DNA of 64,000 bases from Longimicrobiales bacterium (GCA_965238005.1 OZ250165.1:32001-96000); one strand, 5' to 3'; positions 14,614 to 18,798 are shown, numbered from the stretch's first letter. Numbers and translations: made by a program. The notes: a model not told the origin generated them from the sequence alone.

Positions 14614-15087
14614 ATGCCCCTCTCCGTCGGCACCCCCGCCCCCGACTTCGCTCTGCCCGTGAAGCCCAAGGAGGATCCACTGCTGCTCGCGGATTACAAG
14701 GGCGAGCGCAGCGTGGTCCTCATGTTCTTTCCTCTCGCGTTCTCCTCGACCTGCACTGCGCAGATGTGCACGGTGGCCGAGAACTACCGGGCTTGGGAGG
14801 CCCTCGACGCCGAGGTTATCGGGATCAGCGTCGACTCACCCTGGACGAACCAGAAGTTTGCGGCGGAGTGCGGGGCCACCTTCCCCATCGCGTCGGACTT
14901 CAACAAGGAGGTGTCGGCTGCGTACGACGCCCTCTACGACGAGTTGATGGGACTGAAGGGCGTCACCCGACGGGTCGTGTACGTCATCGACCGATCGGGG
15001 ACGATCGTCTACGCCTGGGAGGACGAGGACGCTGGGATCATGCCCGACTTCGACGAGATCATGGCTGCGGTGGAGGCCGCCGGCTGA
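14614..15087 (+). CDS. Peroxiredoxin (AhpC/TSA family)
   Basis: VGTPAPDF, FFPLAFSSTCTAQMC, GISVDS, SDFN. Confidence 0.9.
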   Translation: MPLSVGTPAPDFALPVKPKEDPLLLADYKGERSVVLMFFPLAFSSTCTAQMCTVAENYRAWEALDAEVIGISVDSPWTNQKFAAECGATFPIASDFNKEVSAAYDALYDELMGLKGVTRRVVYVIDRSGTIVYAWEDEDAGIMPDFDEIMAAVEAAG

Positions 15088-15356
15088 GGGTTGAGCGTTG
15101 CTACGCGGCTTCGGAAAACCGTACTACGCGGCCCCGGAAGTGGTCGCCGTGTCCTCCAGAGCATCGAGCGCCCGCATGATGACGCTCGAGGGTATGTGGT
15201 CCTCGTGCTTGTACCGGGCCGAGCTCGTGAGGTAGTCGGGCTCGACGCCGCGAGCCTGGTTCTGATCTTATAAGGCGAAAGGCTGACCTCACTCGAGCGG
15301 GGCGTTACGCTGAACTTGCTCAAAGGCCTGCGGCACCCAACCCAAGGAGGCCAGCC

Positions 15357-16394
15357 ATGTTTGTCGCAGGCATCGACGCTCACGCAACGTATTCGGTGAT
15401 CGCCATCGTGAGCAACACAGGTCAGCTCGTACACGGACCCGCTCGGATCAAGAACAAGGAAGAGGATCGATTCGATGAACTGTTCAAGCAGTATCGGCCC
15501 CTCGAGGTGGTCGTCGAGACGAGTCCGGCCTGGCCCTGGCTCTTCGATCGACTGCAGGGCTGTGGGATCCACTTCGTGCTCGCCCACGCCAAGCGGCTTC
15601 GAGTCATCGCCGAGTCCAGCTACAAGAGTGACGACATCGACGCCGAGCTCTTGGCGCGTATGCGGCTCGCGGGCCTCATCCCCGAGGTCCATCCCAAGTC
15701 CATCGAGCAGAGAGAGCAGGCGGTGCTCCTACGCAACCGGGCGAGACTCGTACGGGAACGCACCCGAATGGTCAACCGCATCCACGCCCAGCTCCACAAC
15801 GTCGGACTTCACCTGGAGCGTGGGCGTCTGCTCACCCAGGATGGACGTCAGTGGGTGCGAGACGAGGCATGGCCCCGGCTCGGAGACGAGCGGCGTCTTT
15901 TCATCGACATGCAGTGGGCCCTCATCGACCAGCTCGTACCGATGATCAAAACCCTCGATCGCAGGGTCGAGCACATGGGCCGAGAGATCCCGGCCGTGGC
16001 GGTCCTCGAGACCATCCCCGGCATCGGTTCTTACCGGGCACTGCTCATTGCGACCGAAACATTGCCCATCGAGCGATTCCGCACTCCCGCTCACCTGGTG
16101 AGCTACGCCGGCCTCGCCCCGCGCTCTTCACAGTCCGGCCTGCGTCCCATCCGCCACGGATCGATCCCCGCCGGGGCCAACCGTTGGCTGAGGGGCACCT
16201 TCGTCCGGGCCGTCGTGAGCCACGTCGCTCACGCGCCCGACAGTTGGCTGTCCGAGTCCTACGACCAGATGAAGCAGCGTCTCGGGTGGCAGGTCGCCCG
16301 GGTCGCTACCGCTCGTCGCCTCGCCCGCGCCGTTCACGCGATGCTCCGCACAGGTGAGGTCTGGCGAGATGAACGCGTGTCCCAACAAAACTGA
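15357..16394 (+). CDS. IS110-family transposase/recombinase
   Basis: GIDAH, VVVE, KSDDIDA (DEDD), TIPGIG, YAGLAP..SQSG (catalytic Ser), ATARRLA. Confidence 0.96.
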   Translation: MFVAGIDAHATYSVIAIVSNTGQLVHGPARIKNKEEDRFDELFKQYRPLEVVVETSPAWPWLFDRLQGCGIHFVLAHAKRLRVIAESSYKSDDIDAELLARMRLAGLIPEVHPKSIEQREQAVLLRNRARLVRERTRMVNRIHAQLHNVGLHLERGRLLTQDGRQWVRDEAWPRLGDERRLFIDMQWALIDQLVPMIKTLDRRVEHMGREIPAVAVLETIPGIGSYRALLIATETLPIERFRTPAHLVSYAGLAPRSSQSGLRPIRHGSIPAGANRWLRGTFVRAVVSHVAHAPDSWLSESYDQMKQRLGWQVARVATARRLARAVHAMLRTGEVWRDERVSQQN

Positions 16395-16720
16395 GGTGTC
16401 ACACCACGATGTATCGTACCACGACAGGGGTGAGCTCCGCGCGCAGCATGTCGCTCGACGACCCTCAGATTCTGACTGAGCCCCCCGCTCGCATAGCAGA
16501 TCTTCGGACGTCCCCGCGTTGGGACGAAACCTGAATAGATGCCTGAGTTCCTCGTGAGAGGAGACTCGCCCAAGATCGGCCGCGACGTCGGTACCGAAGT
16601 TGAAAACAGGAAAATGATCACGCAGGCCTTGAGCTACAGCCTAGACGACCGAGCCACCCATCCACTTCCCCGGACGGGTAAGGGAGGGCTACGCCCTGTT
16701 GACTTTCTTCGCCTTATAGA
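16395..16720 (+). ncRNA. Predicted seekRNA/bridge RNA region of the IS
   Basis: Non-coding region downstream of tnp as in IS1111 elements; multiple hairpins; short matches to the target (16441-16449, 16470-16475) and to the circle junction (16535-16540, 16572-16577); transcript ends unknown. Confidence 0.65.
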
Positions 16721-16968
16721 TGACTGAGCCCCCCGCTCGCATAGCAGATCTTCGGACGTCCCCGCGTTGGGACGAAACCTGAATAGATGCCTGAGTTCCT
16801 CGTGAGAGGAGACTCGCCCAAGATCGGCCGCGACGTCGGTACCGAAGTTGAAAACAGGAAAATGATCACGCAGGCCTTGAGCTACAGCCTAGACGACCGA
16901 GCCACCCATCCACTTCCCCGGACGGGTAAGGGAGGGCTACGCCCTGTTGACTTTCTTCGCCTTATAGA
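16473..16968 (+). repeat. 248-bp tandem duplication (16473-16720 / 16721-16968)
   Basis: Two copies, identical by eye, from TGACTGAGCCCCCC to CGCCTTATAGA. Confidence 0.95.
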
Positions 16969-17517
16969 TGCTGCACGAGGGCCCCGACCGGCTTTGCGGG
17001 GAGTGGCGGGGGCGGGGGCGGCGCGTCCGGCAGCAGCCTCATCATCGGGTCGAGAAAGTAGAGCCTGCCGTCTAGGGAGTTCGGCCGCCGGTCCGGCGCA
17101 TTCGGCCGCCAGTCCGGTGCATTCGGCTGCGACCCGCATGAGCATCGCCCCCACCTCGGGGTCCAACCTGCCACGCACCAAGTACATGCCGTCCTCGTCC
17201 GGGAAGATCGAGAAGCACCTGGAGCGATGCCGCATCCTCTCGAGCTCCTGTTCGTCCCACCGGTTCAGCCGCCGCCACGCCCTTACCACCCGCTGAAGCT
17301 GGGCCGCTCCGACCGCCGCCCTCGTGCACCGGCCAAAGCTGCCGCTGGGCTGGATGGGACGCCGTTGGGGCCTGCTCGCGCTGGAATCCCGAACCGGACT
17401 CCGACCGCCGCCCTGGTGCACCGGGCAAGGGGCGCTGACGGGACGCCGTGGGAGCGCGTGGACCGCGCCAGATGGGCCCGACCTGACCACCCCGCCGTCT
17501 AGAGCCGCTCTACGTCC

Positions 17518-18798
17518 CTAGCTCCGCTCCACCACCATCGCGAACCCCAGCGCCCCGGCGGCGCACACCGTGATGAGTCCCAGCTCGGCATCCCTGCGCT
17601 TCATCTCGTTGAGGAGGGTCGTGGTCAGCCGGGCGCCGGTGGCACCGAAAGGGTGTCCGATGGCGATGGAGCCGCCCATAACGTTGATGACATCCACGTC
17701 GGGGTGGCCGACGGCCTCACTCCGTCCCAGCTCCTCCTGGGCGAACTTGTTGGACGACAGCGCCTGGAGGTTGGAGAGCACCTGTGACCCGAACGCCTCG
17801 TGCATCTCCATGAGGTCGATGTCCGCCATGGTGATTCCCGCCCGCTCCAGAGCGATGGGCGTCGCGTACGCCGGTCCCTGGAGGAGCTGGCCTTGTGGAT
17901 CCAGGCCGGAGAACGCGTAGCTCCTCACGTAGCCCATGGGCTCGATCCCCTCTGCCTTCACGCGCTCCTCCGACATGAGCATCACCGCCGAGCCTCCGTC
18001 GGTGAGAGGCGAGGCGTTGCCTGCCGTGACGCTTCCGTGGTTCCGGTCGAAGACCGGCCTGAGCTTGGCCAACGCATCGGCGCTCGTGTCGGTCCGGATG
18101 CCGTTGTCGGTCTCCAGCACCGTCTCGAAGCGCGGCGGGACGTAGAGCGGGGCGATCTCCGCTCGGAGCCTGCCGTCCTCCGTTCCCGCCGCGGCAAGGT
18201 GATGGGACCGGAGCGCCCAGGCGTCCTGGTCCTCCCGGGATATGCCGTTCTCTTTGGCCATCCGCTCCGCCGACTCGCCCATGCTCTCACCCGTGGTGGG
18301 CTCTGCGATCTTGGGGAAGTCGGGGATGAGGTCCTTGGGTCGGATCCTGGCGAGCCGCGCCAGGCGGGCTTTCACGCTCTTGGCCTTCGAGACGGCGATG
18401 AGGGTCTCCGACAGGGACTGCTTGATGGTGATCGGGATCTGCGACAGCGACTCGGCGCCCCCTGCCACCACCACATCGGCGTAGCCTCGCTCGATGAGGT
18501 TCACCCCGTCGGCGATGGCCTGGTTGGACGAGGCGCAGGCCCGGGAGACCGTCACCGCCGGAACGGTCTTGGGCAGGGTGGCCAGCCCCACCTCCCGCGC
18601 GATGTTCGGGGCGTGGGGATTGTGGACGACCGTGCCGTACACAAGGTGGTCCACCTCCTCCCCGGGAATCCCGCTCCGGTCCATGAGCTCCCGGACGGCC
18701 AGGGTCCCTAGCTCGATGGCCGTCATGTCCTTCAGCTCGGATCCGGATCGGACGAACGGGGTGCGGCATCCCGCTATGACAGCGGCGCGATTCGACAT
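17518..18798 (-). CDS. fadI: Acetyl-CoA C-acyltransferase (3-ketoacyl-CoA thiolase, FadI type)
   Basis: RTPF, VSRACASS, MHEAF, GGSIAIGHPFGATG, CAAG. Confidence 0.9.
   Translation of the reverse strand: MSNRAAVIAGCRTPFVRSGSELKDMTAIELGTLAVRELMDRSGIPGEEVDHLVYGTVVHNPHAPNIAREVGLATLPKTVPAVTVSRACASSNQAIADGVNLIERGYADVVVAGGAESLSQIPITIKQSLSETLIAVSKAKSVKARLARLARIRPKDLIPDFPKIAEPTTGESMGESAERMAKENGISREDQDAWALRSHHLAAAGTEDGRLRAEIAPLYVPPRFETVLETDNGIRTDTSADALAKLRPVFDRNHGSVTAGNASPLTDGGSAVMLMSEERVKAEGIEPMGYVRSYAFSGLDPQGQLLQGPAYATPIALERAGITMADIDLMEMHEAFGSQVLSNLQALSSNKFAQEELGRSEAVGHPDVDVINVMGGSIAIGHPFGATGARLTTTLLNEMKRRDAELGLITVCAAGALGFAMVVERS

Follow-up and report, generated by a model that had tools for sequence, protein, structure and literature searches.

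A very probably RNA-guided IS1111-group element of a Longimicrobiales bacterium: covarying target guides, an integron attC target and a duplicated tail

Siddiquee et al. 2024 (PMC11187229) describe IS1111 elements by a GL-P----S(t)G motif in the transposase, subterminal inverted repeats usually of 11–13 bp and a longer non-coding region 3' of the transposase gene (tnp), and report seekRNAs for ISEc11, ISPa11, the attC-targeting ISKpn4 and ISPst6; in these RNAs, the match to the top strand lies 5' of the match to the bottom strand. Published extensions beyond the repeats are 7+3, occasionally 6+3, bp, with no target duplication. Four guides and a core were defined by Durrant et al. 2024 (PMC11208160), who predicted bridge RNAs in 93% of IS1111 elements. 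Here we describe an element of this kind in a 64,000-nucleotide stretch of the genome of a Longimicrobiales bacterium (GCA_965238005.1, OZ250165.1:32001-96000) – the window, from whose first letter coordinates are counted unless given as genome positions. The element is very probably an IS1111-group member of the IS110 family, guided by an RNA encoded 3' of its gene; the matches between the guides of its family and their flanks exceed chance, and the guides covary with the flanks. It is new, yet fairly ordinary within a kind described in 2024 (IS1111 seekRNA/bridge RNA).

With the IS1111-attC group (ISKpn4, ISPst6, ISPa21), the element shares a DEDD/SG transposase of 330–350 amino acids (aa), subterminal repeats and a long 3' non-coding region, and its family shares insertion at one end of attC in a fixed orientation. 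It differs in phylum (Gemmatimonadota), in its core (TG), in its extensions (6+2 if the TG is given to the left end, against 7+3 or 6+3) and in the position within attC, which is 12–13 nt from GTTAG in the element's family and CGAATT-GTTAG in ISKpn4, as given in the table of a 2026 review. ISKpn4 and ISPst6 were compared by description only; among plasmid-borne IS110-family proteins, even the nearest do not exceed 34% identity, and searches of the literature on IS1111 seekRNAs, the IS1111-attC group and gemmatimonad IS110 elements and integrons found nothing on this clade among the papers listed. An earlier sequence-only reading of the window, which called the recombinase probably uncharacterised, was thus fair as regards the element, although the kind itself is published. 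As a family these elements behave like the IS1111-attC group, although the window copy itself is not in an attC site.

The bridge RNA of IS621, as reported by Durrant et al. (PMC11208160), resembles the predicted RNA of the element in having two modules, target guides that read one strand each and have the core dinucleotide as their overlap, a further loop that reads a donor end, and guides that include the core. The RNA predicted here (16427–16577) is encoded 3' of the gene, whereas IS621 carries its own upstream of the recombinase gene, within the left end. The guide order is also reversed (the right-target guide is 5'), the core is TG instead of CT, and the element has long subterminal repeats. 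Whereas the donor loop of IS621 has guides for both ends, just a right-end donor guide is supported in our element.

Target guides that change with the flanks

A protein-seeded scan returned 52 related loci in Gemmatimonadota/Longimicrobiales genomes, at 47–90% protein identity. In the close clade, all 17 other left flanks end in ATTC-TG (ATTCT before GAT), while the right flanks read TG-CTGCGC exactly in 13 of 18 cases and with one mismatch in the other five, the window included; these flanks are not all independent events, as some pairs are near-identical (L024, L026). Other insertions of the element do therefore share their flanks, as the sequence-only reading required.

Alignment of the regions downstream of tnp reveals a conserved scaffold – GGGG(U/A)GAGCUC, segment 1, UGUCGC..GACGACC, segment 2, then UG-A-(C/U)UGAGCCCCCC – in which the two segments are variable. 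The reverse complement of segment 1 corresponds to the core and right flank, and segment 2 repeats the left flank and core. Scored over 10 nt each against an element's own flanks, the segments match at 10+8 positions in L045, 10+6 in L052, 9+6 in L041, 9+7 in both L040 and L014, and 8+7 in the window copy. For a covariation test, one representative was kept for each of 11 guide classes, with same-class duplicates and one-junction elements dropped. Matches outside the core averaged 11.4/16 against an element's own flanks and 5.5/16 against those of other elements, and none of 100,000 permutations reached the observed match sum. Covariation with the flanks had been named beforehand as the observation on which the claim of downstream target guides would stand or fall, and across these 11 classes it was found.

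In the window, the right-target guide GCGCAGCA (16441–16448, on the plus strand like every other feature of the element) is the reverse complement of TG-CTGCGC, and the left-target guide GAUUC-UG with the invariant A after it occupies 16468–16475. The former, which would complement the top strand, lies 5' of GAUUCUG (16468–16474), which would complement the bottom strand; this is the IS1111 order, and the reversed order relative to IS110-type elements had been correctly anticipated. The nine-base match GCGCAGCAT proposed at 16441–16449 is in place, and its first eight nucleotides are the guide; the ninth base, a T, gains no support as a guide base because it is invariant whatever the right end's last base. 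TTCTGA is likewise found at 16470–16475, as part of the somewhat longer left-target guide.

Guides and flanks have also moved together over a short evolutionary distance. L015 and L017 have 90% protein identity to the window copy, but in these two and in a relic at genome position 1058971 segment 1 is GCCGCGCA or GUCGCGCA, and segment 2 is UUCUGCUG in L015 and L017. The left flanks of L017 and of the relic end in ..CTGC-TG: these copies sit 3 nt along, at the second of the two TGs in ATTC-TG-C-TG-CGCG, as do L042, L045 and L060, which are more distant. This is natural retargeting by 3 nt through a guide shift, among 90%-identical elements, although the flanks of L015 fit poorly.

The TG core and the integron attC target

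GAT is present at both junctions, as the sequence-only reading stated (15264–15266 and 16719–16721), but its occurrence at both is limited to the close clade. Across the wider family, what is shared is TG and nothing else: it stands at 20 of 20 right junctions and at 24 of 25 left ones, the exception being CG in L015. The ends of distant homologues (59–69% identity) read TG-A(C/T)C(T/C)-TATAAAG on the left and CTTTATA-GG-TG on the right. Moreover, unoccupied copies of the host repeat have ATTCT directly followed by (A/G)CTGCGC, without GAT, and the flanks of L045, joined through one TG, recreate the host-repeat consensus. Because TG alone is common to both junctions and the repeats lack GAT, the empty site of the family is ATTC-TG-CTGCGC, and GAT as the core is ruled out. 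It follows that the empty site of the window is ..GGTTC-TG-CTGCAC.., not the GAT-containing site proposed earlier, and that the circle junction, which had been given as ..TTATA-GAT-CTTATAAGG.., is instead predicted to be ..TTATAGA-TG-ATCTTATAAGG... A search of metagenome contigs for this predicted junction gave two matches, both in unrelated AT-rich DNA. In the mechanism we propose, the TG would serve as the crossover point between a circle junction (right end-TG-left end) and ATTC-TG-CTGCGC.

Of the TG, the G alone persists in three right junctions that entered the comparison later (CG in L040, AG in L043 and L044), and the right-target guides of these elements end in CG rather than CA; the TG core thus tolerates a mismatch at its first base. 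Some of these divergent members target short perfect palindromes, namely ACGTTAC-CG-CGGTAACGT (L040:2840-2870) and CGTTTC-AG-CTGAAACG (L043, L044). In them, the first core base of the target differs from the donor T, and the left junction has TG while the right one keeps the target base. As a separate observation, the GAT-containing 'empty site' TTCTGATGCTGCGC occurs once in the genome of the window, unoccupied, at G000:C1:3673078-3673101, in a context that is not attC-like.

The host repeat belongs to an integron. A profile of it finds 28 copies in the genome, nine of them in the same orientation at 3.4456–3.4638 Mb, and beside this cluster lies an integron integrase gene (3,441,723–3,442,649) whose score is 326.6 bits (cut-off 265). 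The terminal box of the repeats is GACGTTAG; after it comes, in two cases, a ribosome-binding site with ATG or, at once, an overlapping ATG. The host repeats are attC sites, and the target of the family is one arm of a chromosomal-integron attC, with insertion 12–13 nt from the R' box (GTTAG); tnp would point against the cassettes, if their orientation is as those two cases indicate. In a second genome, several copies lie within ~30 kb of a degraded integron-integrase-like gene, provided that the contig numbering corresponds.

The chromosomal integron of the window's genome (G000:C1:3441723-3463800) comprises the integrase, which scores above the curated cut-off, followed by at least nine co-oriented attC-like repeats and several IS1111 relics. 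The latter include a left-end relic at 3450877 and a donor-module fragment of the divergent clade that abuts attC at 3453052.

Element anatomy and the predicted guide RNA

The transposase gene (15357–16394) encodes 345 aa, with matches to PF01548 (E 8.5e-17, residues 4–148) and PF02371 (E 1.8e-16, residues 216–299). When aligned with 16 homologues, the catalytic residues D7, E54, D92 and D95 are unchanged in 17 of 17 sequences, none of which contains a stop, and the GL-P----SG motif at residues 252–261 reads GLAPRSSQSG, with G252, L253, P255, S260 and G261 equally invariant. The sole match in a search of PDB sequences was the ISCro4 transposase, weak (E = 4.9e-4) and aligned over the SG region. 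The DEDD/Ser transposase is thus intact, as claimed, and so are the perfect 11-bp subterminal repeats, TATAAGGCGAA at 15269–15279 and TTCGCCTTATA at 16708–16718 (and again at 16956–16966).

The left target half of this insertion (15255–15262) reads CTGGTTC against a family consensus of GCGATTC, ending in GTTC where other copies have ATTC. It is followed by the core TG of the left junction (15263–15264) and by the left end (15265–15279), which consists of a 4-nt extension, ATCT, and the repeat. The right extension is GA; together with the common TG, the terminal extensions are asymmetric, at 6+2 nt if the left end takes the TG. The core is the sole sequence repeated at the two junctions of the element. 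About 92 nt are non-coding 5' of tnp (15265–15356), against ~326 nt on its 3' side (16395–16720), and the canonical unit, with one TG counted in, is 1,458 bp long and spans 15264–16721.

RNAalifold, applied to 22 downstream sequences, predicts an RNA of two modules. By pair counts, 97.9% of cells are paired and nine pairs have changed on both sides; none of 500 shuffles reaches this, and slid controls are 30–45% paired. The target-binding module (16427–16486) places the two guides on opposite sides of an internal loop, between a closing stem of GGGG[UGA]GCUC (16427–16437) with GAGC.CCCC (16478–16486) and a distal stem in which 16450–16453 pair with 16459–16462. Its helices 1–3 are 99–100% paired, with one pair showing a compensatory change, in three sequences. 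The CTCAG/CTGAG hairpin that the sequence-only reading had drawn around the left-target guide does not survive this comparison: CTCAG is absent in most homologues, and CUGAG is part of the stem that closes the target loop.

In the donor-binding module (16499–16577), GAUC at 16499–16502 pairs with G.AUC at 16574–16577, enclosing a variable hairpin (16506–16533) and a second hairpin (16544–16568); helices 5–7 contain eight pairs with compensatory changes. AUAG(A/G)UG is left unpaired. In the window, this segment is AUAGA-UG (16535–16541), the same sequence as the right-end terminus ..ATAGA-TG, and the last two guide bases before UG track the extension of the right end. They are GA in the close clade, GC in L040 and L043, and GG in eight of the nine divergent elements whose right end is known; the covariation comes from few lineages. 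The alignment thus supports AUAGAUG as the right-end (left-donor) guide, and ATAGAT, which had been placed at 16535–16540, retains its role in that capacity. The same cannot be said of AAGATC (16572–16577), the proposed guide for the left end: the motif is present, but its GATC does not change where the left-end extension does (ATCT, ACCT, ATCC, ACTT), and RNAalifold pairs this GAUC with the upstream GAUC. An alternative left-end guide, AGAUC at 16498–16502, was no better supported and was not adopted. Further downstream, just 5' of the right repeat, lies a hairpin resembling a terminator, GGGCUACGCCC, which is conserved and has a U-rich tail (16685–16707; second copy at 16933–16955). One close homologue carries ~0.9 kb of foreign DNA in its downstream region (L018:2808-3721), between positions ~269 and ~274 of 327 nt.

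We propose that a DEDD/Ser transposase is guided by this two-module RNA, encoded 3' of its gene, the target module pairing with the two strands of the target while AUAGAUG in the donor module would pair with the right-end terminus.

The duplicated tail and the state of the window copy

The sequence-only reading ended the element at 16720 and overlooked an exact tandem duplication: 16473–16720 recurs at 16721–16968 with 100% identity over 248 bp. The first right end (16708–16722, comprising the repeat, GA and TG) is joined to internal ACTGAG, and the sequence from 16721, GACTGAGCC, is itself internal to the element. The second copy contributes another donor module and right end, and the host flank GCTGCACG begins at 16970, past this copy. 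The true right host junction thus has its core at 16969–16970 – TG, as is shared across the junctions of the family – followed by the right target half of this insertion, CTGCACGA, at 16971–16978 (family consensus CTGCGCG). In its empty site, the earlier reading had joined the left flank to the flank past the second tail copy. Contigs from the public runs X1, X14, X9 and X15 include none that crosses 16720/16721 or leads from the right end back to the left end.

Both boundaries of the duplication are informative. Its junction reads right end-TG-ACTGAG, and its left boundary is the TG at 16473–16474, within the DNA that encodes the left-target guide. Among the 69 TG dinucleotides in the unit, this one alone has TTC before it (the sole TTCTG) and is the best mimic of the left junction, GATTC-TG-A matching it over 8 contiguous nt. 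The duplication is best explained, this suggests, by the transposase having used the left-target-guide DNA (16468–16475) as an internal pseudo-site. Because this DNA reads GATTC-TG-A like a left junction, it may itself be a substrate, which the transposase recombines with the right end and thereby targets its own guide gene; we put the chances of this at about even. Recombination at the pseudo-site would take out or put in a 248-bp tail module, which comprises the donor loop and the right end, and leave a tandem duplication. Three routes would each yield exactly the observed structure: a circle could insert into the pseudo-site, with a homologous deletion to follow; the tail module could be excised and re-inserted; or a site resembling the circle junction could recombine with the pseudo-site. 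ISPpu9/MITEPpu9 (Pares-Guillen et al. 2025, PMC12288879) offers a parallel, having likewise a tail module 3' of tnp bounded by sites usable by the transposase, and module-only circles and tandemly duplicated modules are reported for it. It differs in that its module contains a further set of the end boxes (A'/B'), whereas the left boundary in our element is guide DNA that mimics the left junction, and in that circles are reported for ISPpu9, whereas the present element is known here as sequence.

The genome of the window is one 4.84-Mb contig with one intact copy, that of the window, alongside relics comprising four left ends (86–90% identity) and two right ends. Before GATCT, the left flank reads AACGTCTC.GCGATTCT in three relics and GCGATTCTGCT in one; both relic right flanks have GCTGCGC after GAT, and the reverse complement of GCGCAGCAT therefore matches them at 9/9 positions, one more than the window's own flank. 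For the window insertion itself, the restored site shows no similarity to attC, even at E up to 1000, and it counts among about 295 two-mismatch sites for the 12-mer target in the genome, which holds 20 one-mismatch sites and no perfect free one. The window copy is therefore off-site, a two-mismatch insertion outside attC. If the element is taken out, the minus strand has an open frame of 236 codons running across the insertion point (15100–15262 plus 16971–17520), so the element may interrupt a gene.

Two copies of a ~220-nt repeat, at G000:C1:1529235-1529495 (+) and 2043255-2043475 (-), are joined to the right half of an attC site. Their last 52 nt are 98% identical to the right end of the element, and the upstream part, which also occurs at a loose end in public run X14, is unrelated to the guide region. 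The repeat could be a derivative resembling a miniature inverted-repeat transposable element (MITE), or the tail of another family member.

How far might these observations be explained otherwise? It is conceivable that the short matches are due to chance, with the protein or the structure of attC picking the target and the downstream region being merely a 3' untranslated region or terminator. Each guide match is indeed just 6–9 nt long, and several results weigh against the guide-RNA reading in general or for this copy: Rfam gave no match over 15000–17300 at E up to 10; a single-sequence fold of 16422–16600 was no better than shuffles (z = 0.45); no sigma-70-like promoter site was found at 15150–17100; L015 (5+4), L017 (4+8) and L057 (6+8 of 10) fit their own flanks poorly; the window flanks are each one base off their own guides; the right-end guide of L052, the exception among the nine, has one mismatch to its own right end; and the alignment of downstream regions contains no segment that covaries with the left-end extension. 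Even so, chance matching is very improbable, as, over 11 classes, the guide columns and the flanks vary together to a degree reached by no permutation in 100,000, both guides shift together in the lineage retargeted by 3 nt, and the helices flanking the guides covary.

Having taken the RNA-guided reading as by far the better one, one may still ask what it implies for the duplication and for the window copy. The former might have arisen independently of the transposase, by replication slippage, by unequal exchange at a 2-nt microhomology or as an assembly artefact. The two boundaries have just TG in common, the duplication is known from the assembly alone, no second tail copy occurs in the 52 related loci, and scans for the duplication junction (right end-TG-A(C/T)TGAGCCCCC) gave two matches in genome contigs, both in unrelated coding sequence (Aliiroseovarius, Bacteriovorax), and none in metagenome contigs. 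We nonetheless consider such an origin unlikely, since one boundary coincides exactly with the point at which the right end recombines, the other with the only one of the 69 TGs located in the DNA of the left guide, where 8 contiguous nt read like the left junction, and tandem end-flanked modules with module-only circles are reported for ISPpu9. Another possibility, to which we give less than even odds, is that the family is RNA-guided while the window copy is a stranded, immobile remnant: it is off-target, its flanks mismatch both guides, its tail is rearranged, and it is the only intact copy among relics in a genome that lacks perfect targets. For ISEc11, changes in the flanks are reported to block excision, and circles needed intact target-derived flanks in order to form; by analogy, the window copy may be immobile. 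Set against this are its intact reading frame with every catalytic residue present, its guides, which are identical to those of multi-copy relatives, its 100% identical duplication, which suggests recent activity, and the report that flanks are dispensable for excision in ISPpu9 (PMC12288879).

Recombinases guided by seekRNAs and bridge RNAs are under development for programmable insertion into genomes, and guides have been assigned in few IS1111-type systems. To these, the Gemmatimonadota clade adds ~11 guide classes that share one scaffold and form a clean natural data set, a natural shift of target by 3 nt among elements that are 90% identical, and evidence of attC-hunting IS1111 elements in environmental chromosomal integrons. 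If the transposase made it, the tail duplication indicates a self-targeting liability wherever guide-coding DNA mimics a junction. This would be a natural RNA-guided recombinase targeting the gene for its own guide, a route to MITE-like modules and an inherent off-target to which engineered seekRNA/bridge systems may also be prone.

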